This document shows, in pieces, positions 5,317 through 56,140 of a stretch of 64,000 nucleotides of DNA. The first letter of the stretch is position 1. Every line of letters begins with the position of its first letter. Both the position numbers and the translations under genes were made by a program. The DNA is from a virus: UHGV virus genome UHGV-1451962, one strand, 5' to 3'. The notes under the pieces are model-generated. The model ran no database searches. It had not been told where the DNA came from and saw only the letters and a program-made list of their open reading frames with translations.

Positions 5317-8300
5317 ATGGCTAAAAGACTTAATTATGAAGTAGGCTTTACTGGCGATACTTCACAATTAAAAGCGTCTTTAAATGATGCTGTAAAAGCT
5401 TTACAAAAATTAGGTACTTCTTCAACTACTCAAATGACTCAGGGTATGCGGGAAGCATCTAAATCTGCATTAGAATTAGCTAATAATTTAAAAACTGCTA
5501 CTAATCAAGAAACAGGAAAATTAGATTTAGTAACTTTTAATAGAAATTTAGCTAATAGTAAGATGACCATTAGTGATTATGCTAAGCAATTATCTCAATT
5601 AGGCCCTACTGGTCAGCAAGCTTTTATGAAAGTTGCGCAAGCAGTTACTTCTGCGGAATTACCAATGAGACGTACTAATAAAGTATTGGATGAATTGTGG
5701 ACAACAATGAAAAATACTGCTCGTTGGCAATTAACCTCAAGTGCGTTGCATGGATTTATGGGAGCTTTAAATACTTGTGTTGGATATTCTAAAGCTTTAG
5801 ATAAATCTTTAAATTCTATCAGAATTGTTACTGAACAATCAGCTGAACAAATGGCTGATTTTGCAGTTCAAGCTAATAGTGCTGCAAAAAATTTAAGTAC
5901 AACAACAACAGATTATACGGATGCAGCATTGATATATTATCAACAAGGTTTAAATGACAAAGAAGTTCTTGATAGAACTGATATTACTATTAAAATGGCC
6001 AATGCCGCAAATGAAAGTGCTCAAGTAGTTTCTGACCAATTAACTGCGGTTTGGAATAACTTTTATGATGGTTCACAATCATTAGAGCATTATGCTGATG
6101 CGATGGTGGCGTTAGGTGCTGCTACTGCTTCTAGTTCAGATGAAATTGCTGGCGGCTTAGAGAAGTTTGCATCAATCGCAGACATGATTGGGTTAAGCTT
6201 TGATTATGCTGCTTCTGCTTTAGCAACAATTACTGCTACAACTCGTCAAAGCGAAGATGTTGTTGGTACTGCTTTGAAAACTATTTTTGCTCGTATTCAA
6301 GGTTTGAATTTAGGAGAGACCCTTGAAGATGGCACTGATTTAAATAAATATTCAGAAGCTTTGAGCAAAGTTGGTGTTTCAATTAAAGATTCTAATGGCG
6401 ATTTGCGTAATATGGATGCTATCTTAGATGATATAGGCGCAAAATGGGGTACTTTAACAAAAGACCAACAAGTAGCATTAGCGCAAACAGTAGCCGGCGT
6501 TCGTCAATACAACCAGTTAGTTTCTTTAATGGATAATTGGGATTTCTTTGAAGATAATTTAAAGATTGCCCAAAATTCTGAAGGTGAATTAAATAAGCAG
6601 GCTGATATTTATGCAGAATCTTGGGAGGCCGCGAGAAAAAGAGTTAAAGCTGCGGCAGAAGATATTTATGATAGCATTTTGAATCCTGAGAGCATTGTTG
6701 CTATTGATGATGTTTTAACTCCATTTTTAAGTGGAATAGCGCAAGTTGTTAATGCTTTAGGTGGATTAAAAGGTATTGCTTTAGTTGTTGGTTCTGTCCT
6801 TACTTCTGTTTATAGTGGTAAATTGGTAAATGGTTTACAAAATTTTGCTACTAATATTCAGATTATGACTGGACTTCAAGGAAAATTAACAAGAAGCTTA
6901 CAAGAACAAACCGTAACTGAAGCAGAAAATCTTGATATTATAATTGGTGGTAATCGTGCTTTAGAAACTGAAATTTCTTTGATGCGAGAAAAAGTTCAGT
7001 TACAAGGTATGATTAATAAATATACCAAGAATTATGACCAAAGTCAAATGTTACAAGTCAATCAGCGAGTAGGCGTTATTGATGCTTTGCGTCAACAAAT
7101 TATGGCTTCTGCTCAAAAACAAACTGCTTTGTTGGGTGAAGCTGAAGAATTTAAAACAACTATATTGTTAGATATAGAGCCAAAACCTGGTTGGGAAGAA
7201 AGATTTAGACAGAAAATTTTACAATTTAATACTAATATGGTTAATGGGCCATTAAAAAATCTTAATTCTGTCTTTTTATTTGATGAAAAAGATGATATAA
7301 CAAGAACTACTGAAAAAGTTACAGCAAGTATGCAAAAGTTAGCTTCTCAAGCTAGTTCTATAGAAGCAGTAAGACGAGCTTATAGCAATTTAAATATAGA
7401 TCAAAAAGAAAGTGCCGTTGTTTTACAAGAATTAATTCAAAAGACTGGTTTATGGAAAGCAGAAATGCAAAATTGGTCTACTCCTAAATTACAAGAATTT
7501 TTGAATAACTTAGGTACTCAATCAATAGAAGCTTCTAAAGGGATGCAACTTTTAAAACAAGCTTTAATGGAATTAAGTTATTCTCCTGAAGCTATTGATC
7601 AATTTATTAATTCGATAAGAAGATTAGCCGCTGAAGAACATAGTGCCGCAGAATATACAAGATTAATTAATGAAGAAATAAAAAAATTTACGAACAGTTT
7701 GCAAACTGGTAGTATTCAAAGTGAATCGGGTTGGGCAAAAACTGTTGTAAGCATGTCTAATCATCTTATGAATTTCGGAATGACTCTTTCCGCAGTTAGT
7801 AATATGGGTAAAGTTTTCAAAGAATCTATGGAAGGAAATATTACTGCGGGAGAAGCTTTCATTCAAATTATGACTAATTTGGGTATGATTTTGATGAGTG
7901 GCAGTAGCCTTTTCATGGCTTTGTCAAAATCAATGGGTGCTCTTGTTTCAGTTTATACTGGTGTAAATACTTCAGTAGCAGCTCTTACTTTTGTTACAAA
8001 ATTAAATACTGCGGCTGAAGAAGGAAATATAGCTGCAAAAATAGCTAATGTTGCAATTACAAAATTGCTTACTGTTTCAGAAGGTAGTTTAGCTGCTGCT
8101 ATGGGTATAACTATTGGCGTTTTAGCTCTTTTTGCGGCTGGAATTGTGTTTGCTGTAAAAATAATTGATGGTTTAATTGTAACTCAAAAAGAAGCCAGTC
8201 AAGCTATTGCGGATGCTACTCAAAATTATACTGATCAAAAGAGCAAATTAGATGAGTTAAATAGTTCTTTAGAGCAAACTAGACAAAAGATAGAAGAATT

Positions 8301-26313: not shown

Positions 26314-26916
26314 ATGGCTTTATTTAAAGTTTTTTATGGAACAGAAGCTGAGATGAATCAAGTCGCAGTAAAAGAGTCTTATGCTTATATCCTAGAAGAG
26401 AATGATTGTATGTATGTCGATTTTAATAATGCTAGACATAAATTAAATGCGGGATATGCAGAAAAACTTCGGAAATTTAATGCGGCTGGAGCAGTTGAAA
26501 TAGAAATTGATCCAGAAGAATTGGTTTTAAATTCTGATATTATTGATATAGAACATGGTGGCACTGGTGGCAAAACTGCGGCTGAAGCAAGAACTAATTT
26601 AGATGTTTATAGTAAAACAGAAGTAAGCGATAATATTAAAACTGCTACTGATAAGGTCACTTCTAAGGCTTATCCTGCTACATTGTCCGTAGGAGCTTGG
26701 ACATTAGATGGAGAAGTTTATAAAATGTCTTATTTAATTGAAACTTTGAAGTGTGGTGCTGATGGTACGGTTCCGCCAATTATTACTTACACCAACAATT
26801 TAGAAGAATATTCTAAAATTGAAAAGGCTACTGCTACTCCTGGTTTTGGAGTTACTTTCGAGATAAAAGAAAAACCTACTGATAGTATAGGTATTATTAT
26901 TGTAGATAATTGTTAA
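26314..26916 (+). CDS. tail fibre protein (N-terminal GGTG-type motif)
   Basis: Contains DIEHGGTGGKTAAEARTNLDVY, which matches the conserved N-terminal tail-fibre motif; start placed at the ATG 7 nt after aaggagg rather than the track start at 26290. Confidence 0.5.
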   Translation: MALFKVFYGTEAEMNQVAVKESYAYILEENDCMYVDFNNARHKLNAGYAEKLRKFNAAGAVEIEIDPEELVLNSDIIDIEHGGTGGKTAAEARTNLDVYSKTEVSDNIKTATDKVTSKAYPATLSVGAWTLDGEVYKMSYLIETLKCGADGTVPPIITYTNNLEEYSKIEKATATPGFGVTFEIKEKPTDSIGIIIVDNC

Positions 26917-26929
26917 TAAAAATAAAATG

Positions 26930-26962
26930 GGTAAGAGCTAAATGCTCTTACCCATTTTTTTG
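26930..26962. terminator. bidirectional rho-independent terminator at strand switch
   Basis: Stem gggtaagagc / gctcttaccc with 5-nt loop; T-run on plus strand and U-rich flank on the minus strand; lies between convergent genes. Confidence 0.6.
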
Positions 26963-26964
26963 TT

Positions 26965-27402
26965 TTATATAATATGATAATAAGGTTTTTCTTCATCAAA
27001 GATTTTCCATCTAAGAAAATCATCTAAAATAATTCCTATTAGACCTAGAATAAACCAAAGACAACTAAAAGATAAACATATTTGTCCTTTATAATTAAAA
27101 GGTAAATGTGAATAATCCCAAATATTAAGTTGTAATTGAATGTTTAAAATATATCCAAATAAAAATTCTAAACTTGTTATAATTGCGGTTCCAATTAATC
27201 CTTGAGCCAATAAAGACCAATTCCAAGGAATATTTTCATTTAAGCTACCTAAAATTAAAAAAGATAAACCGCCTAAGATAAACATTGACCAATGAGTATT
27301 TCCTGAATGTATATATGTTTTGTAAACAAATTCAATTAACCAGTAAATACTTCCGCCAATCAAAAATAATATAGAATTTCTAAAAAAAGAATTAATTTTC
27401 AT
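26965..27402 (-). CDS. integral membrane protein (function unknown)
   Basis: 145-aa ORF with several hydrophobic helix-length segments; overlaps the upstream minus-strand ORF by 11 nt. Confidence 0.4.
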   Translation of the reverse strand: MKINSFFRNSILFLIGGSIYWLIEFVYKTYIHSGNTHWSMFILGGLSFLILGSLNENIPWNWSLLAQGLIGTAIITSLEFLFGYILNIQLQLNIWDYSHLPFNYKGQICLSFSCLWFILGLIGIILDDFLRWKIFDEEKPYYHII

Positions 27403-28051
27403 ATTTTAATTCTATGGCTTTAATTTCCTTATAATTTTTAGCAGTATAAATTTGTGTTTTATATTGTTGCATTTTTTTATAATAAGGATAAACAAAATCA
27501 GAAATAGCTAAAGCTAAAGCAGTCAAATTTTCAACTGTCCAAGATGTACATTCTTCTTGGCGAGCATGCCATTCTAATCTAGGATTCTCTGCTCCAGCCT
27601 GAACTGCCATAGAATATTGATTCATATTTAGGCTAATTTCTGATTGATCTTCTTCTGTAACTCCATATTGCTTTCCATCAATCCAAGTCAAAGGATTATT
27701 AATGAGGAAATTAGCGAAAGCTTTTTTATTTTCTTCTTGTTTCATTTTTTGATATTCTTCTAAAGAATAGTAATATGTTAATTCATTTTTTTCATTATCA
27801 TATTTATAAAAATTAGGTTCATAATCTTCTGGAATATTACCATCAAAAGATAAGATTCTTACTGCATCAATAGAACCTGTCATATCTGAATTAGCCAAAA
27901 TGAAATGGCTATTGCAATCTGAGCCTATTACTCCTGTAGCTTCACCTTCCGAGCAAGCAATGACAATACTTGGGTTGGATTGTAATTTGATGTAGCGGAT
28001 TTCCGCAAGGATATCGACTACTATATTTTCTCTATTGATTAATAAATACAT
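27392..28051 (-). CDS. hypothetical protein, translationally coupled to the DGR reverse transcriptase
   Basis: 219-aa ORF whose start overlaps the RT stop by 1 nt; no recognisable motif. Confidence 0.4.
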   Translation of the reverse strand: MYLLINRENIVVDILAEIRYIKLQSNPSIVIACSEGEATGVIGSDCNSHFILANSDMTGSIDAVRILSFDGNIPEDYEPNFYKYDNEKNELTYYYSLEEYQKMKQEENKKAFANFLINNPLTWIDGKQYGVTEEDQSEISLNMNQYSMAVQAGAENPRLEWHARQEECTSWTVENLTALALAISDFVYPYYKKMQQYKTQIYTAKNYKEIKAIELKYEN

Positions 28052-29307
28052 TATAATATTTCAACTCCTTTAAATAATGAATGGAAATAATTATCAAGAT
28101 TTTGTATAATATAAAAAGTAGTACCTTTATTTATATGTTCTCTAAAACCTCGATATGATTCTTGAATTTCTATATCAGTTATTTTACCTTGTAGCCAAAG
28201 TTGGTGCATTTTTCTCATTTTTCTATATTGTCGCTTTATTTTCTTTTTAAATGGAGTTTGAATAATTTTATTCGTATTAGTTAAATAAAAATCCCATTTT
28301 AAATATTTAAATGGATTATGTTTATCCGAACGTCTTTTATGAGGATAATTATTTTTATCTAGTTTTATTGGACTAATTTTAATTATTTTAGTTTTTCTTT
28401 TGTTACATTTTAAATGTATTTTATTTAATTCATTTTCAATTTTATTAAGACATTCTTTTAAATAATCTTTGTCATTATGCAAAATATAAATATCGTCCAT
28501 ATAACGTCCATAATATTTTAAATGCAAATGCTCTTTTGCATAATGGTCAATTCCATTTAATGCCAATAAAGCTAATAATTGAGATGCTTGACTACCTAAA
28601 CCTAAACTTTTATGATTAAATTCATAATAAGTACAATTTTTATAAAATTGTTTAGGATAAATTATCTTATATTTTTGTTTTTTGATGATATAGTATTGTT
28701 TATTAGGAATAGGAACTGTATCTTTTGTGACTGAAAAACAAAAGGTATCAATAATATAATCAATTAATTTAAATACTCGTTTTTCTTTAATATAATGTTT
28801 TGCCATTTGCTTTAAAGAATTATGGTCTATTGAATCAAAAAATTTTTGAATATCAATTCTTAAACCATAAAAAGATTTTCCTAAACCATATGTTCTGTGC
28901 GCTGCTTGTAAATGTTTACGCACTTCTAGCAAAGCAAAATCAATTCCTTTTCCTTTTAATGTAGCACAATTATCATAAATAAATTTTGGAGTTAGTTCTG
29001 GAATAAGAACTTGCGAACATAATGTATTTTGTGCCAATCTGTCATAAATATGGCACGCTCTTATATCTCTGGGTTTGCCCCGCTCAATTATACTAAAACT
29101 GTTAAAAACTAATTGTTCATAACTGTCATTTTCTAATTGTTCTTTAAGCGTTAAGATGTTATTTAATCTATTTTCTTCAAAATTAACTGTACTATCTTTC
29201 CATCTTACGTTTCGGCAAATAGAATAAGAAGAATCATAAAAAGCGTCAAAATTACAAAAACGCTGGAAAAGATTTTCTTCTATAAAAAATTCTCCTTTTT
29301 TTATCAT
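28051..29307 (-). CDS. DGR-type reverse transcriptase
   Basis: 418 aa; RT motif 2 (GLRIDIQKFFDSIDH), DGR-type motif 4 (GLGSQASQ = GxxxSQ), catalytic YMDD (YGRYMDDIYIL); lies directly downstream of the TR in the canonical target-avd-TR-RT order. Confidence 0.85.
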   Translation of the reverse strand: MIKKGEFFIEENLFQRFCNFDAFYDSSYSICRNVRWKDSTVNFEENRLNNILTLKEQLENDSYEQLVFNSFSIIERGKPRDIRACHIYDRLAQNTLCSQVLIPELTPKFIYDNCATLKGKGIDFALLEVRKHLQAAHRTYGLGKSFYGLRIDIQKFFDSIDHNSLKQMAKHYIKEKRVFKLIDYIIDTFCFSVTKDTVPIPNKQYYIIKKQKYKIIYPKQFYKNCTYYEFNHKSLGLGSQASQLLALLALNGIDHYAKEHLHLKYYGRYMDDIYILHNDKDYLKECLNKIENELNKIHLKCNKRKTKIIKISPIKLDKNNYPHKRRSDKHNPFKYLKWDFYLTNTNKIIQTPFKKKIKRQYRKMRKMHQLWLQGKITDIEIQESYRGFREHINKGTTFYIIQNLDNYFHSLFKGVEIL

Positions 29308-29588
29308 GCGGTGCTAGATTGTGTGCTCTGACACGCACATCCGCAATCTTAATTAATTATCTGTATAGATAAAAGGTTAAATTCTCCTTAAATGAAAGCT
29401 ATCTATTATAATCTAAGTCTTTTATTTAATATTTCCTCTCCTTCTTGGTTTTAAAACCAATGCGTCCAGAAAATACCAAAATAGATGAGTTATAACATAG
29501 GTTATAATTTTCTGGGGTAACACTTAGTCGTCTCAGTCGATGTCGCCTGCGGCTCCATCACCAGAGACAGTTAGAGTTCTCATCTAAT

Positions 29589-29693
29589 CGGGCGCGAGGT
29601 AATTGTTGTTGTTGTAGTTGGTATTGTTCGCATTACCATCAGAGTTGACATTGCACACATTGTTCGTGTTGTTCGAGTTGTAGTAGCGAGACC
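29589..29693 (-). repeat. DGR template repeat (TR)
   Basis: About 105 nt, 84/105 identical to the VR; 20 of 21 differences lie at plus-strand T (adenine on the transcribed minus strand); non-coding, between the Avd-like ORF and the RT. Confidence 0.85.
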
Positions 29694-29726
29694 CGCGATA
29701 TTTTAGAATTTAACCAAATAAAAAAA

Positions 29727-30191
29727 TTATTTGTATCGCTGAGAATAAATTAGATTATCTCTATTTATTCTATCAAGAAGATTTTGTTTTAATTTGTAAG
29801 TAAGTTTAGCAACATATTTGAAAGATTTATTTTTCTTTTTATTATTTAACCCATATTCATAAATACATAAATCTAATTGCCTTAAAATTGAATCACAATA
29901 TCTTATTGATTTATTAAAGTAATCTGCTCTTTCAACTAAAGTTTTTTTATTTTTTAGATTGATTAAACTAGCAGAGAAAGCATATCCATGTGCGTTTTTG
30001 GCACATTTTAAAATATCTGCACCAAAAGCTGAATAATAGTATGGATTACCAAGAATACCTGGTTTAATATGAGAACCATCATCTAATTCTTGATATGGAC
30101 GAACTAAAATTAATACTTGATGGACTAACTTTCTTGCATCATTTAAATAATCATTTTTAGATTGATGCCTATCTTTTTTTCTTACTGACAA
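29727..30191 (-). CDS. avd: Avd-like accessory variability determinant (putative)
   Basis: 154-aa basic (Lys/Arg-rich) ORF with TTG start after aaaggagg, placed between VR and TR as Avd is in known DGRs; assignment by position and composition only. Confidence 0.5.
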   Translation of the reverse strand: MSVRKKDRHQSKNDYLNDARKLVHQVLILVRPYQELDDGSHIKPGILGNPYYYSAFGADILKCAKNAHGYAFSASLINLKNKKTLVERADYFNKSIRYCDSILRQLDLCIYEYGLNNKKKNKSFKYVAKLTYKLKQNLLDRINRDNLIYSQRYK

Positions 30192-30225
30192 ATTAAAAAC
30201 CTCCTTTAAATAACGTACAAGAAAT

Positions 30226-30254
30226 ATTATACCAGAAAATTTTTAAAAAGTCAA
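30226..30254 (-). promoter_or_regulatory. sigma70-like promoter for the avd-TR-RT transcript
   Basis: On minus strand: TTGACT, 17-nt spacer, TATAAT (exact consensus -10), preceded by an A/T-rich UP-like tract; about 35 nt upstream of the avd TTG start. Confidence 0.5.
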
Positions 30255-30315
30255 AGAAAAAAAATTTTTAGAAAAAATTTTTTTCCCAGAAAAGGTGAAA
30301 GCATTTTTATACTAT

Positions 30316-30341
30316 GGCATTGGCCCTTTTGGGCCAATGCC
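30316..30341 (-). promoter_or_regulatory. GC-rich hairpin 3' of the VR (candidate DGR target-recognition hairpin)
   Basis: Perfect 11-bp inverted repeat ggcattggccc / gggccaatgcc with 4-nt loop, about 30 nt downstream of the target-gene stop; no U-run on the minus strand, so it is not a canonical terminator. Confidence 0.5.
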
Positions 30342-30369
30342 AATATAACCTTACTGTATAACTTTACAG

Positions 30370-32154
30370 TTATCCAATAACGAAAGCGGGCGCGAGGTAA
30401 CGGTAGTTGGCGTAGTAGGTAAAGTCCGCACCACCATCAGAGTCGACACGGCACACATAGCCCGTGTAGTCCGAGTAGTAGTTGCGAGACCGCTCCCAAT
30501 ACCATTTGGAATCTCCTGAACTGTTACCATTAGCATCTTGAATGTTTTTTATACGGGAGCTGTCACTTGTGTAATAATCATAAGCAGCATTATATCCTTT
30601 AGTACATTCTGCATTGGAAACAGTAGAATTAGCAGTGCTGATTGGAGAATAACTATCTAATCCCATTTCTCTCTCAGAAGGAATCCAAACAGTTTCGTTA
30701 TTATAACTAACATTAGCACTTCTATTATCATCCCAATTATCGCAAGTACCTTTAGATACTGTTTTTATAGATGCTTTAGCAGCACAAGCATTATAAAAAT
30801 TTTGACAATAACTTCTAGCATTAGAACCAATCCATTGTGCGCTATTATCACCAAAAGTAGTCATATTCGGCAAGAGATAAACACTATGAAAAGCTAAAGT
30901 TTTATCTCCATCTTTGTCATAGCCAATACAACGCATTGTAACAGCATTTGCTCCTAAAACATTAGTAGATAAATTCATCTTTTTAGTTTTACCAACTAAA
31001 GCTTGACGTTCTGAAGCAGAAGAATTGTTAAGCCAAGACTTTAAGCCAGCCCACCAAGAAGCATCTCCCGCAGCACTCTCATTTCCCCAAGTCCAATATG
31101 TAGCAGTAGCAGTAATTTTTTTATTCGCGGGAGTTGTATAATTGGTACTGGCTGCTATTGATACAGTAATAGTAGCAGTTCCCGCGGTTGTACCATTGCC
31201 TTTAATGGTAATTGTTTTACCGCTTACTGTTGCTGAAGCCACATTAGAATTAGTAGAAGTTACAGAAATTGTACCAGTAGAATTAGTGGTCACAGTAACT
31301 TTTACACCAGTAGAATAATTAGATGCGTCAATAGAAACAGTAGAAGTGCTTAGACTTAATGTTCCTGTTGCTTTTTGAATAGACCAATCAACATTTTTCG
31401 CGGTTGTTGTCTTATCAGGCCATCTGTAATTATTTTTAGGAGTAAAAGTAGCTGTATATTTTCCTGCATTAATTCCCGATGTAGTTCCTCCAATAGTCAT
31501 GTAACTTGTATTATAATTTGACCAATTTGGACTTTGCGAATTGGCGTTATAAGTTAAAGTTCCAGTTTGAGAAGGAATAGGAACTGTTTTTCTTTCTACT
31601 GTTACAGAAAAAGTAGTAGTTTTAGTAATACTATTTTCTGTATAAGAAACAGTAATTGTTTGAGTACCAACTGTATTTAAAACAGAAGGTGAAGTTGTCC
31701 AACCAGAAACAGTAGCGGTTTTACCATCAGAATAAGTGGCAGTAACAGACATTCCGGCAGATTCAAATGTCTCGCCATATTCATAAATTGTCTTAGTTGG
31801 TTTTGTGCTTGTGATGCTGGTTAGTGCATGGATAACAGTAACTGCTTGCTCGGCGGTACAAGTAACTCCTCCTTCAGAGTAAGTAATAGTAACTTTAGTT
31901 ACTCCATCAGTTAAAGGAGAAGGTGTTACAGTATATCCAGTTACCGCAGTAGAAGAAACAACAATATTATCAATGGCATAATTGGCAGTTATAACCATTC
32001 CTGTTGTTTCAAATTCTTGTCCAGCAACGTAAGATGTACGGTTTGGTGGAGTAGTAACTTCAATAGAGTGGAGTGCTATTGAGCTTCCGCCACCTTTTCC
32101 GCCTTGTTCAGTTAAAATGCATTTAACAGGCAAGGTATAAGACCTCCTTATCAA
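30370..32154 (-). CDS. DGR target protein: Ig-like repeat protein with C-terminal lectin-fold-like variable domain
   Basis: 594-aa ORF; tandem Thr/Ser-rich Ig-like segments (e.g. GVTKVTITYSEGGVTCTAEQAVTVIH), then a C-terminal domain containing WIPSEREMGL and the VR; likely true start is the TTG at 32133 (9 nt after aaggagg) rather than 32154. Confidence 0.8.
   Translation of the reverse strand: MIRRSYTLPVKCILTEQGGKGGGSSIALHSIEVTTPPNRTSYVAGQEFETTGMVITANYAIDNIVVSSTAVTGYTVTPSPLTDGVTKVTITYSEGGVTCTAEQAVTVIHALTSITSTKPTKTIYEYGETFESAGMSVTATYSDGKTATVSGWTTSPSVLNTVGTQTITVSYTENSITKTTTFSVTVERKTVPIPSQTGTLTYNANSQSPNWSNYNTSYMTIGGTTSGINAGKYTATFTPKNNYRWPDKTTTAKNVDWSIQKATGTLSLSTSTVSIDASNYSTGVKVTVTTNSTGTISVTSTNSNVASATVSGKTITIKGNGTTAGTATITVSIAASTNYTTPANKKITATATYWTWGNESAAGDASWWAGLKSWLNNSSASERQALVGKTKKMNLSTNVLGANAVTMRCIGYDKDGDKTLAFHSVYLLPNMTTFGDNSAQWIGSNARSYCQNFYNACAAKASIKTVSKGTCDNWDDNRSANVSYNNETVWIPSEREMGLDSYSPISTANSTVSNAECTKGYNAAYDYYTSDSSRIKNIQDANGNSSGDSKWYWERSRNYYSDYTGYVCRVDSDGGADFTYYANYRYLAPAFVIG
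30387..30491 (-). repeat. DGR variable repeat (VR) at the 3' end of the target gene
   Basis: Matches the TR with substitutions almost exclusively at TR adenine positions; encodes the C-terminal ~35 residues (…YYSDYTGYVCRVDSDGGADFTYYANYRYLA…); shared GC-rich 3' boundary cgggcgcgagg. Confidence 0.85.
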
Positions 32155-32250
32155 GAATTATTATTAGAGTTTTAAAACTCCATCATTATTTATAGAATAA
32201 AGTACACCTTTTAGATTAATTGGGAACGTACTTTCCATAAAAAATGTAAA

Positions 32251-32286
32251 ATTGGGAAAAGGATATAAAAATATCCTTTTCCCAAT
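32251..32286. repeat. perfect 16-bp-arm palindrome in the divergent intergenic region
   Basis: attgggaaaaggatat-aaaa-atatccttttcccaat; flanked at 32199-32210 and 32383-32394 by a 12-bp inverted repeat (aaagtacacctt / aaggtgtacttt). Confidence 0.6.
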
Positions 32287-32424
32287 ATAAAAATATATTC
32301 TAAAAGTTTGGATATCTTATCCTTTTCATCTATACTTAAAGATTATTTTAATTAATTTTCCTTAGATTGACCAATGTTTCATAAGGTGTACTTTTTAAAC
32401 TTATATTTTGAAAGGAGTTTTTAA

Positions 32425-34170
32425 ATGGCTGTTCAATGTGTACTTGTCGGAAAAGGCAAGGATGATGTATTTACTGCTGTTTATGGCGAAACTACATTTG
32501 ATAAAGTGTTAAAAGCTTATAATGAAAATAAAGTAGTTCAAGTGATTTATCAAAATCGTATTTATTATTTAGATAATACTACTGTTGTAGATTCTCCTGA
32601 AGCATTTTCTTTTATTTCTGCTTTTAGTAATCAAAATGATGAAGCTGGTGAAATAAAGCATTATGTAATAAGTTTAATGACAGGAGATAGTTGGTCTGGG
32701 CCTTTCTTACAGAAATCTACTCCAGCAACTCACGCGAATACTCATAGTAAAAATGGTGATGATCCACTTACCCCCGCAGATATTGGAGCTATGGAATTAT
32801 CAGAAAATGTTCTTAAACAATCAAATGAAGATATTACTTCTCAAGTAGCGCAAGCTTTATTTGGGGATTTAGTTCCTTTTAGCGGTGGAACCATGACTGG
32901 TTTGTTAAATGTTCTTACTCCTGTTAGAGATAGTAATGCTACTACTAAAAAGTATGTAGATGATGCTTTGAGTGAGAAAATTGGAATGGATGGCATTGGC
33001 GATTTGCATGTATGGAAGAAGACTATAATAACAAAACAGGAGATTCCAGCAAGTTTTACTTTAGGTGATGTACACTCTGGTTCGTTTCGTTTTGTTAGTG
33101 GTGAAACTAATGTGTTGTTAGTAGGTACTCCTAAAGTTAATGAGAGTGGTGTCGTTACCTTAACAAACTCTGCGCAGTATAATTTTAATTATAATTCTTC
33201 ATCTCCTAGTATATCTGATCTGCGAGGACAGTATTGCATGTTTACCATGATAGCCGATCAATTTTCTAGTTTTACTGCCAATAAAGTTTTTTATATACCC
33301 ACTGATGCAAACTATATTTCTTTATCAAGTTCTAAAAATATTACTAAATATCAAGATGTTAATGGTACACCTAAAATTCCTGCCGAAGTAACTACTACCT
33401 ATCCCGCATCTACTAATCCCAATGCGTATCAAGAGGGGAGCGATGCAAAACCAGCAGGATATGTACTTGGTAATGTGATAACAGGTTCATTTTGTATTGG
33501 TAATACAACAGCACCTACGAGAGCTGCTTATTATGTCGCATCTGATATTTCTGTATCTGATAATGGTGTTTTATCTATTTCAACACAAACAAATATAACT
33601 ATTGGTGGTAATTTTTTTGTATCTAGCCGTGATTTAATTGCTGGTAAATTTATACAAATTTATAATAAAGGGTCTATGTCTTCTGTTTTATCTGAACCAT
33701 TCACAACAGTACCAGGCCCAATTATTTATATTCCGAATGATGTAAACTTAACGTCTGGCGGTGATGGAAATTTAAATTTATATATTGATCGCTACCAACC
33801 TATTACTGGCTACGCTGCTATCCCCGCAGGCACCACTATTGAATATCTGGGGAAGTTGGGAGATAAGACTAGGGTAATAATTGGCTCGTATATTGGGACA
33901 GGGGTCTGCGGGGCAGAGAATCCGACCAAAATAAAAACGAGTTTTTTACCGAAACTTGTAGCAATAAATGGAGTAGGAAATACCGGCAGTACGGGCATTA
34001 TTCTGTTTTTTCGAGATATGAACTATGCGTTCTCAGAAATCGGCTCAAGTACCAACTTTAACTTTACTAATATAACCTGGTTATCAGACGGAGTACATTG
34101 GTATTCTAGCAAAGTCCTTATGCAGGGGAATAAGCAGGGGGCAATTTATAAATACATTGTTATCGGTTAA
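32425..34170 (+). CDS. tail fibre protein
   Basis: 581-aa ORF with RBS (aaaggag); contains the tail-fibre motif FSGGTMTGLLNV and an HANTHSKNGDDPLTPADIGA segment; last ~110 codons are visibly GC-richer. Confidence 0.6.
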   Translation: MAVQCVLVGKGKDDVFTAVYGETTFDKVLKAYNENKVVQVIYQNRIYYLDNTTVVDSPEAFSFISAFSNQNDEAGEIKHYVISLMTGDSWSGPFLQKSTPATHANTHSKNGDDPLTPADIGAMELSENVLKQSNEDITSQVAQALFGDLVPFSGGTMTGLLNVLTPVRDSNATTKKYVDDALSEKIGMDGIGDLHVWKKTIITKQEIPASFTLGDVHSGSFRFVSGETNVLLVGTPKVNESGVVTLTNSAQYNFNYNSSSPSISDLRGQYCMFTMIADQFSSFTANKVFYIPTDANYISLSSSKNITKYQDVNGTPKIPAEVTTTYPASTNPNAYQEGSDAKPAGYVLGNVITGSFCIGNTTAPTRAAYYVASDISVSDNGVLSISTQTNITIGGNFFVSSRDLIAGKFIQIYNKGSMSSVLSEPFTTVPGPIIYIPNDVNLTSGGDGNLNLYIDRYQPITGYAAIPAGTTIEYLGKLGDKTRVIIGSYIGTGVCGAENPTKIKTSFLPKLVAINGVGNTGSTGIILFFRDMNYAFSEIGSSTNFNFTNITWLSDGVHWYSSKVLMQGNKQGAIYKYIVIG

Positions 34171-55566: not shown

Positions 55567-56140
55567 TCATATCTTCCTCCAAAAAAGTAAAAAATCTTTT
55601 CCTTTTTCTCATTGGCTCTCTTGTTTTAGGGGGAGTGATATGAATTTCTTCTGTAGGCAGAATAAAATTTTCTATTTCTTTATTTTCATTTCTTTGCTGA
55701 TTTTCCCAAATTGTATAATAATAATTTCTAGCATTTTCATACTGATAAGGGACAATTCCAATTCTGCCTTGAGCCTTTCCTAAATCTCCACCTTTTACTT
55801 CAAAATGATATTTTAAAGTTTTTAAAATACCAGAATAAGTATAATGATTTTCATTTACATAGTCTTTAATTTGTTTATAAACTACTTTAGGAATTATATC
55901 ATAATTAAAAAGTTGTTTAATATATTCTTCTAAAGCAATCCGGTTTTTTTCTTCTTCTGCAATATTTTGACTATATCTTTCATAACATAACTTATGTGCA
56001 TATCTTCTTTTATTAGGAATTGGTATACATTCTTCTTTGTCTCGGTCAAATGTACTTCCGCACACAAAACATTTTACTTTATGTGCAATTTTTATCACTT
56101 CCTTTTTTAATATTATAACATATATTTGAACAAAAGTCAA
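55559..56140 (-). CDS. hypothetical zinc-finger-like protein
   Basis: 193 aa; CFVCGS…HKLC cysteine pattern; track start overlaps a terminator hairpin, so the true start may be internal. Confidence 0.3.
   Translation of the reverse strand: MTFVQIYVIILKKEVIKIAHKVKCFVCGSTFDRDKEECIPIPNKRRYAHKLCYERYSQNIAEEEKNRIALEEYIKQLFNYDIIPKVVYKQIKDYVNENHYTYSGILKTLKYHFEVKGGDLGKAQGRIGIVPYQYENARNYYYTIWENQQRNENKEIENFILPTEEIHITPPKTREPMRKRKRFFTFLEEDMNE

Follow-up and report, generated by a model that had tools for sequence, protein, structure and literature searches.

To our knowledge, the native promoters of DGR accessory operons have rarely been mapped. In Bordetella phage BPP-1 the functional DGR RNA takes in the TR together with the 3′ portion of avd before it and the spacer after it (PMC7826257, PMC12875486). 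The components of that system have been expressed from heterologous promoters, namely Pfha and an arabinose-inducible promoter, and no mapping of the native BPP-1 promoter was found in this expression literature (PMC5703328, PMC12875486). In E. coli, where the TR-RNA is limiting for the BPP-1 DGR, raising its expression led to 35-fold more retrohoming (PMC12875486), and in Bacteroides the levels of the avd/TR/rt transcripts track DGR activity (bioRxiv 10.1101/2024.11.15.621889). The level of template RNA and reverse transcriptase (RT) appears to set the rate of diversification (PMC12875486; bioRxiv 10.1101/2024.11.15.621889). A different arrangement is seen in Trichodesmium erythraeum, where the TR RNA is a highly expressed non-coding RNA of 265 nt with its own mapped promoter (PMC4143802).

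Here we describe a DGR in a window of 64,000 nucleotides (the whole stretch of DNA that was analysed, from UHGV virus genome UHGV-1451962), which belongs to a phage genome of about 135-140 kb. We consider it very probable that a site immediately upstream of the avd-like gene is a functional housekeeping-type promoter with an extended -10, which would initiate near 30219 and feed avd-TR-RT. The features of the locus are collected in Table 1.

Table 1. Features of the DGR locus, of the candidate promoter and of comparable sites, in window coordinates
Feature	Coordinates	Strand	Remarks
DGR target gene, Big_3 domain	32133-30370	minus	C-terminal VR
VR	30491-30384	minus	C-terminal part of target gene
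GC-rich hairpin	30348-30307	minus	core stem 30341-30316, loop 30330-30327
A/T-rich tract, UP-element-like (gggAAAAAAATTTTTTCTAAAAATTTTTTTTCT)	30284-30255	minus	upstream of -35
-35 hexamer TTGACT	30254-30249	minus	5/6 match to TTGACA
Spacer, 17 nt (TTTTAAAAATTTTCTGG)	30248-30232	minus	carries extended -10 TG
Extended -10 TG (TGgTATAAT)	30234-30233	minus	flagged by consensus scan
-10 hexamer TATAAT	30231-30226	minus	6/6 match
Predicted transcription start zone	30220-30216	minus	from usual -10 distance
SD AAAGGAGG of avd	30207-30200	minus	in 5′ UTR of ~28 nt
avd-like gene, 154 aa, TTG start	30191-29727	minus	ORF and predicted fold
TR	29693-29586	minus	80% identical to VR
Non-coding region, TR to RT, 278 nt	29585-29308	minus	expected part of DGR RNA
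Reverse transcriptase gene	29307-28051	minus	RVT_1 match, E 7e-15
DUF4376-domain gene	28051-27392	minus	abuts RT gene, co-oriented
CmpB-like small membrane protein gene	27402-26965	minus	PF06541, E 2.7e-14
Intrinsic terminator, bidirectional	26958-26924	minus	15-bp stem then T-run
Other strong sigma-A-type sites	56140-56112, 41353-41325, 59396-59368, 58293-58265, 49447-49439	minus	replication module

The DGR island and its probable host

The DGR forms a minus-strand island (32133-26965) set between plus-strand structural genes. Read from its sequence, it is to be regarded as a genuine and active element. All but one of the 22 mismatches between TR and VR fall at TR adenines, and among 11 strains (the window and ten same-species assemblies) the VR varies at 35 of the 37 TR-adenine positions, its 3′ end sequence being constant in all of them. 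The 5′ ends of both repeats (about 29680-29700 for TR and 30480-30500 for VR) are not the same in all strains, L027 and L031 having an indel or replacement there, so that the TR is not strictly invariant within the species.

The avd-like protein gave no sequence match in Pfam or the PDB. Its AlphaFold2 model (pLDDT 91) has 2rld and 2gsc as its top PDB matches (TM 0.85 on the target, with a weak E of ~0.05), both of them four-helix-bundle proteins of the 23S rRNA intervening-sequence family, to which Avd also belongs. With this predicted fold, "Avd-like" is a reasonable name for the 154-aa ORF, and in all relatives such an ORF is present between VR and TR. The DUF4376 gene is likewise kept downstream of RT in relatives, and the CmpB-like gene is also conserved. 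By analogy with the BPP-1 spacer RNA (PMC7826257), the non-coding region between TR and RT is expected to belong to the DGR RNA. When 26900-32500 was searched against Rfam, there were two sub-threshold matches only, which were taken as chance.

The start of the RT gene is unusual. The annotated ATG (29307) is followed by a run of five, seven, eight or nine A, depending on the strain, and is in frame in 3 of 11. An SD (AAGGAG) lies inside the annotated RT N-terminus, and 8 nt after it there is a conserved in-frame ATA (29283-29281), at the place where relatives have ATG. From this layout, the near-cognate AUA is the probable initiation codon of RT, and translation would then be low; alternatively, slippage may occur on the A-run. 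In-frame TAG codons, through which the gene calls run, were seen in the RT genes of L036 and L039 and in the avd of L038, where the TAG occupies the position of a CAG (Gln) in the sister locus L037. Such codons point to recoding of TAG to Gln in some members of this phage group. The window itself showed no sign of such recoding, TAG ending 1 of its 48 ORFs.

The longest ORF of the target gene opens at a TTG at 32154, but an AAGGAGG SD lies inside this ORF, and the TTG at 32133, which AAGGAGG precedes, is the likely start; from there the product is 587 aa long, matching the calls in same-species loci. In the divergent region upstream of the target gene, and downstream of its best promoter-like site (32373), there is a terminator-like hairpin followed by a T-run (32251-32286, minus strand). 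A perfect 12-nt inverted repeat, AAAGTACACCTT, flanks that hairpin (32199-32210 on the plus strand, 32383-32394 on the minus strand); it is not enriched elsewhere in the window, with 7 matches at up to two mismatches versus 9 expected. This upstream region may serve as a leader through which the target gene is controlled in an attenuation-type manner.

Phage relatives and translation signals indicate that the host is likely a member of the Bacillota. The window encodes a tape-measure protein of 2871 aa, its PolIII alpha shares 38% identity with Bacillus SPbeta YorL and 37% with the enzyme of Enterococcus phages, and the proteins most similar to one of its tail proteins come from Enterococcus, Lactococcus, Bacillus and Clostridium phages. 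The related phages that have been isolated all infect Bacillota, one relative was found in a MAG labelled Eubacteriales, and GGAG-type SD sequences precede at least 29 of the 48 ORFs. A crAss-like phage with a Bacteroidota host, for which the sigma-70 reading of the site would not hold, was also considered and rejected: the tape-measure protein and the SPbeta-like PolIII alpha speak against it, as do the capsid and tail relatives infecting Bacillota and the heavy use of SD sequences. The primary sigma factor of Bacillota, sigma-A, uses the TTGACA/TATAAT consensus, often with a TG extension, and with a Bacillota host the factor involved would thus be sigma-A rather than E. coli sigma-70. Recognition of the site by sigma-A is plausible from its match to this consensus; the phage may also modify or replace the host polymerase.

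A candidate promoter upstream of avd

The candidate promoter is located in the 178-nt gap between the target-gene stop (30370) and the start of avd (30191), with which it is co-oriented. On the minus strand the order is gggAAAAAAATTTTTTCTAAAAATTTTTTTTCT-TTGACT-TTTTAAAAATTTTCTGG-TATAAT-atttcttgtacgttatttAAAGGAGGtttttaatTTG. The initial annotation had reported TTGACT and TATAAT separated by 17 nt on the minus strand, an A/T-rich tract upstream of them, and the SD and TTG start of the Avd-like ORF downstream. All of these were recovered: the hexamers at the right coordinates, both in the sequence and in a promoter scan, the tract correctly placed before the -35, and AAAGGAGG followed by the TTG at 30191. 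The extended -10 TG had gone unmentioned.

Taken together, the hexamers match TTGACA/TATAAT at 11 of 12 positions. Promoters of the sigma-70/sigma-A type have spacers of 16-18 nt, 17 being optimal, and an extended -10 TG (TGn, the "-16 region") is common in promoters of Gram-positive bacteria and their phages. UP elements are A/T-rich stretches lying roughly between -40 and -60 and agreeing with the consensus of the alpha-CTD subsites. In composition the tract found here is compatible with this, being A/T throughout, two C excepted; in the window the A-tract lies further upstream of the -35 than in the three other lineages described below, and tract lengths differ among strains. Transcription typically starts 6-8 nt downstream of the -10 hexamer; counting gives a predicted +1 at 30219, with purines at 30218 and 30216. 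In the window species and in L036 alike, 34 nt separate the end of the -10 from the start codon. On sequence grounds, then, this is a candidate promoter of an ordinary, textbook kind, which would not surprise a specialist.

A sigma-70-like match might simply arise by chance in A/T-rich intergenic DNA, and the composition of the window (~30% G+C) favors such matches. At low stringency the promoter scan showed no enrichment in the window (70 sites versus 65.5 expected), leaving only the high-scoring promoter class informative, and high log-odds scores were also obtained within coding regions, for example at 7047 and 15788. Two observations make a chance match extremely improbable all the same. 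The pattern TTGACW-N17-TATAAT occurs twice in the window versus 0.08 times expected from dinucleotide shuffles, both occurrences being intergenic and correctly oriented, and the site upstream of avd is invariant in four lineages whose flanks cannot be aligned. The pattern TTG-N17-TGNTATAAT has 4 matches in the window versus 0.24 expected, all on the minus strand, and 4 of 4 were read as intergenic or at a gene boundary. In the log-odds scan, which used approximate published-style frequencies and covered both strands of the 64-kb window (128 kb), the avd-upstream site has the joint top score of 16.3; it is the best of the 25 intergenic regions of at least 40 nt, tied with 56140-56112.

The remaining intergenic regions with scores above 12 (41353, 59396 and 58293) all belong to the minus-strand replication module, which encodes DnaB, RecJ, a Dda-like helicase, PolIII alpha, NrdD and topoisomerase II. 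Most of the strong sites of this module carry TGnTATAAT, and in several cases an SD and start codon follow 20-30 nt downstream. Those at 56140, 41353 and 59396 precede genes of the module, in each case followed by an SD and start codon, and where a gene closely follows, the sites are as compact as the one upstream of avd, with a short leader, an SD and a start codon after the promoter. The avd-upstream site belongs to the class of these strong candidate promoters and has their architecture.

No promoter of the avd-upstream class was found by the intergenic log-odds scan upstream of the plus-strand structural genes, and none lies upstream of the target gene. This absence from both the target gene and the structural genes suggests that the DGR machinery would be expressed independently of its target, and probably earlier. 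A late-promoter motif shared by the plus-strand genes and the target gene was sought in the DNA upstream of them and discarded, since the motif search gave only Shine-Dalgarno-like words.

Conservation among strains and lineages

The same-species set comprises 11 distinct intergenic variants (from the window, L026-L035 and L045), and in all of them the hexamers, their spacing and the TG are unchanged. When the window was aligned with L026-L035, 1 of the 29 core columns was variable, this being the n of TGnTATAAT (G or A), and 29 of 150 columns varied in the rest of the intergenic region. Because variation in avd is also low (synonymous changes in 20 of 465 columns of the same set), within-species conservation is weak evidence by itself. 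Among the same-species strains, homopolymer tracts upstream of the -35 vary in length (A5-7, T5-6, A5-9 and T7-8). The distance from GGG to TTGACT is 32-33 nt in 10 of the 11 variants, L027 having a 16-nt deletion. These differences in tract length may reflect slippage-driven tuning of promoter strength.

Homologues of Avd led to three further lineages, L036 (66% identical), L088 (57%) and L089 (54%), and in all three TTGACT, a 17-nt spacer, TGn and TATAAT are found upstream of avd. The four-way alignment leaves the invariant string TTTGACTTTTT.AAAA..TT.TG.TATAATA, in a setting where the hairpin, the 5′ UTR and other intergenic sequence are unalignable among the four lineages; across strains and lineages the n of TGn is G, A, T or C. 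In L036, L088 and L089, an A5-7 tract and then a T3-4 tract abut TTGACT. The proposal of the initial annotation that this site drives avd-TR-RT is thus supported as a prediction, the DGR context being genuine and the core invariant across four lineages.

The spacer segment TTTTTAAAA is also conserved across lineages. Its conservation goes beyond the needs of sigma-A, and an additional factor could be involved. Taken further, the segment might be mainly the binding site of some other factor, either a repressor or activator on the T5A5 palindrome of the spacer or a DGR target-recognition cis element, with the hexamers incidental. Both the palindromic nature of the spacer segment CTTTTTAAAA, conserved as it is beyond sigma-A needs, and the use of elements downstream of VR in DGR target recognition (PMC3240598) would agree with this. 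However, the segment is ~130 nt from the VR end, versus the 24-35 bp needed in BPP-1 (PMC3240598), and the invariant positions coincide exactly with the sigma-A consensus, the sole polymorphic core position being the degenerate n. Moreover, a regulator site overlapping a promoter leaves the site a promoter, and we regard the segment as very unlikely to be primarily anything other than one.

Compared across relatives, the consensus promoter appears as a trait of one subclade and not of the DGR family. In L090 (Avd 53% identical) a weaker TTGCCT-17-TATTAT comes after the hairpin, and the leader is long and structured. Most other relatives have a target-to-avd spacer of 81-102 nt, in which the best promoter scores are 4.6-11.4, versus 16.3 in the window; these short-spacer relatives comprise 24 IMG/VR loci, most of 43 metagenome loci, and L037-L044, with Avd at most 57% identical. 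Hairpins with T-runs and no clear promoter were found in L039 and L085/L086. Since most relatives are without the consensus promoter, this DGR family does not depend on a dedicated strong promoter, and the short-spacer arrangement suggests that avd is co-transcribed with the target gene there, or is served by a weak promoter. The earlier view that a separate transcript was "as expected for a DGR" accordingly does not hold as a general rule, most relatives of this DGR having no such promoter.

A second conserved element was noticed in many of these relatives. The sequence GGRCAGTwnRGATTAAAwT is present exactly once per locus in 69 loci (from L001-L024, L037-L044 and L046-L087), directly after VR and between VR and avd, just after the target stop codon; it was not found elsewhere in the flanks of these 69 loci. 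The window has a weak counterpart at about 30357-30340. This element may act as a DGR cis element or else as a promoter that is weak or regulated; a role as a general phage promoter was rejected, given its single copy per locus, always after VR. Megablast of the DGR cassette against GenBank phages gave no match, and neither did a scan of IMG/VR for the exact promoter pattern, from which the window species would be absent from the IMG/VR collection.

The upstream hairpin, the predicted transcript and known systems

Between the target gene and the promoter there is a GC-rich hairpin (-26.7 kcal/mol, z -4.8) with a stem of 11-12 bp and a 4-nt loop. In each of the four lineages a stable GC-rich hairpin lies 55-65 nt ahead of the -35 (z -3.3 to -5.0), those of L036, L088 and L089 occupying the same relative place with unrelated sequences. 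An intrinsic terminator consists of a GC-rich hairpin directly followed by a U-run. Here the hairpin is followed by AUAGUAUAAAAAUGC, with no U-tract, and was not called by the terminator scan; it is therefore not a canonical terminator, and read-through from the target gene can add transcript. The earlier claim that avd, TR and RT have a transcript separate from that of the target gene is thus secured only in part, the hairpin that follows the target gene being without a U-tract.

It could be argued from the same hairpin that avd-TR-RT is transcribed mainly by read-through from the (late) promoter of the target gene, the consensus site being minor or silent. The short spacer of most relatives, without a strong promoter, also points this way, co-transcription seeming to be ancestral. 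We nevertheless think this unlikely. Strict retention of hexamers, spacing and TG in four lineages with divergent flanks is hard to reconcile with a silent site, and the promoter is always paired with a stable GC-rich upstream hairpin, an arrangement that would be consistent with an insulator after which transcription restarts. In addition, the best site upstream of the target gene scores only 10.1 and itself sits upstream of the terminator-like hairpin described above.

The hairpin is a candidate insulator, RNA 3′-end stabiliser or DGR element. The loop of this perfect palindrome reads AAAA in the window and in six further loci of the species, but TTTT in L029, L032, L034 and L035. Template switching or cruciform processing at the palindrome would fit such an inversion, and its occurrence between strains argues against a strand-specific function of the loop sequence. 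The criteria described for DGR cruciforms are a GC-rich stem of 7-10 bp and a 4-nt loop of 5′-GRNA, located 4-34 bp downstream of VR (PMC3240598). Like the cruciform of Guo et al. 2011, the present structure is a GC-rich inverted repeat with a 4-nt loop placed between VR and avd, and in related lineages it is the structure, not the sequence, that is kept. Unlike that cruciform, it has AAAA in its loop in the window (TTTT in some strains) and not GRNA, its stem of 11-12 bp slightly exceeds 7-10 bp, and its stem starts at 30341, 42 nt past the end of TR/VR homology at 30384.

Initiation at the consensus site is the favored explanation. The analysis shows the motif with its statistics and conservation, the layout of the operon and an active DGR; where transcription begins, when it occurs, how far it extends and whether the host polymerase recognises the site are inferred as follows. 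Host polymerase carrying the primary sigma factor (sigma-A, equivalent to sigma-70) would bind the site and start near 30219 on the minus strand. The terminator scan found no canonical terminator from the promoter to 26958-26924, which makes the predicted unit avd-TR-RT plus two downstream genes. The transcript of ~3.3 kb would hence carry avd, the TR and downstream non-coding RNA, RT, the DUF4376 gene and the CmpB-like gene, and would stop at the intrinsic terminator 26958-26924. No promoter-like site was detected between avd and the RT gene by the log-odds scan, in which 29585-29308 scores at most 7.3. A single transcript would in this way provide the template RNA together with the proteins needed for mutagenic retrohoming, whose destination is the VR of the upstream target gene. 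The DGR machinery would probably be expressed by unmodified host RNA polymerase, apart from the target gene and probably earlier.

A more speculative extension, which we put forward only tentatively and consider rather doubtful as a whole, is that the hairpin, the A/T tract and an early-class promoter were acquired as a module between VR and avd in one subclade of these gut phages of roughly 140 kb. Such an acquisition would have uncoupled the DGR machinery from its late target, with template RNA and RT being made by the host polymerase from the start of infection. Relatives with a short, promoterless spacer would then probably co-transcribe avd with the target gene, and the slippage-prone A/T tracts, together with the poor AUA start of RT, would tune mutagenesis.

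As a candidate promoter the site is clean and conserved, it lies in a common phage of the human gut whose DGR is demonstrably active, and it gives a handle for studying expression of a Bacillota-phage DGR and for building constructs. Comparing relatives with and without the promoter could reveal whether DGR activity is tuned by transcriptional rewiring. A strong promoter at this position makes functional sense, given that TR-RNA is limiting for DGR activity in BPP-1 and that activity in Bacteroides follows the avd/TR/rt transcript levels.

With its TTGACT, 17-nt spacer, TGnTATAAT, A/T tract, short leader and strong SD, the site resembles known extended -10 promoters of the sigma-A/sigma-70 type, from which it shows no structural difference, the conserved spacer part TTTTTAAAA being its only unusual feature. 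The order of target gene with VR, avd, TR and RT is that of Bordetella phage BPP-1. As in that phage, one RNA is predicted here to serve as template and to encode the proteins, and the predicted RNA has the layout of the BPP-1 DGR RNA (PMC7826257). In contrast to BPP-1, the predicted unit continues after RT into the DUF4376 and CmpB-like genes, and the host phylum differs. Compared with the DGR of Trichodesmium erythraeum, the transcript predicted here would be a polycistronic mRNA beginning upstream of avd, with a start placed by reading the promoter sequence; it would nonetheless share with that system a template RNA made from a promoter independent of the target genes.
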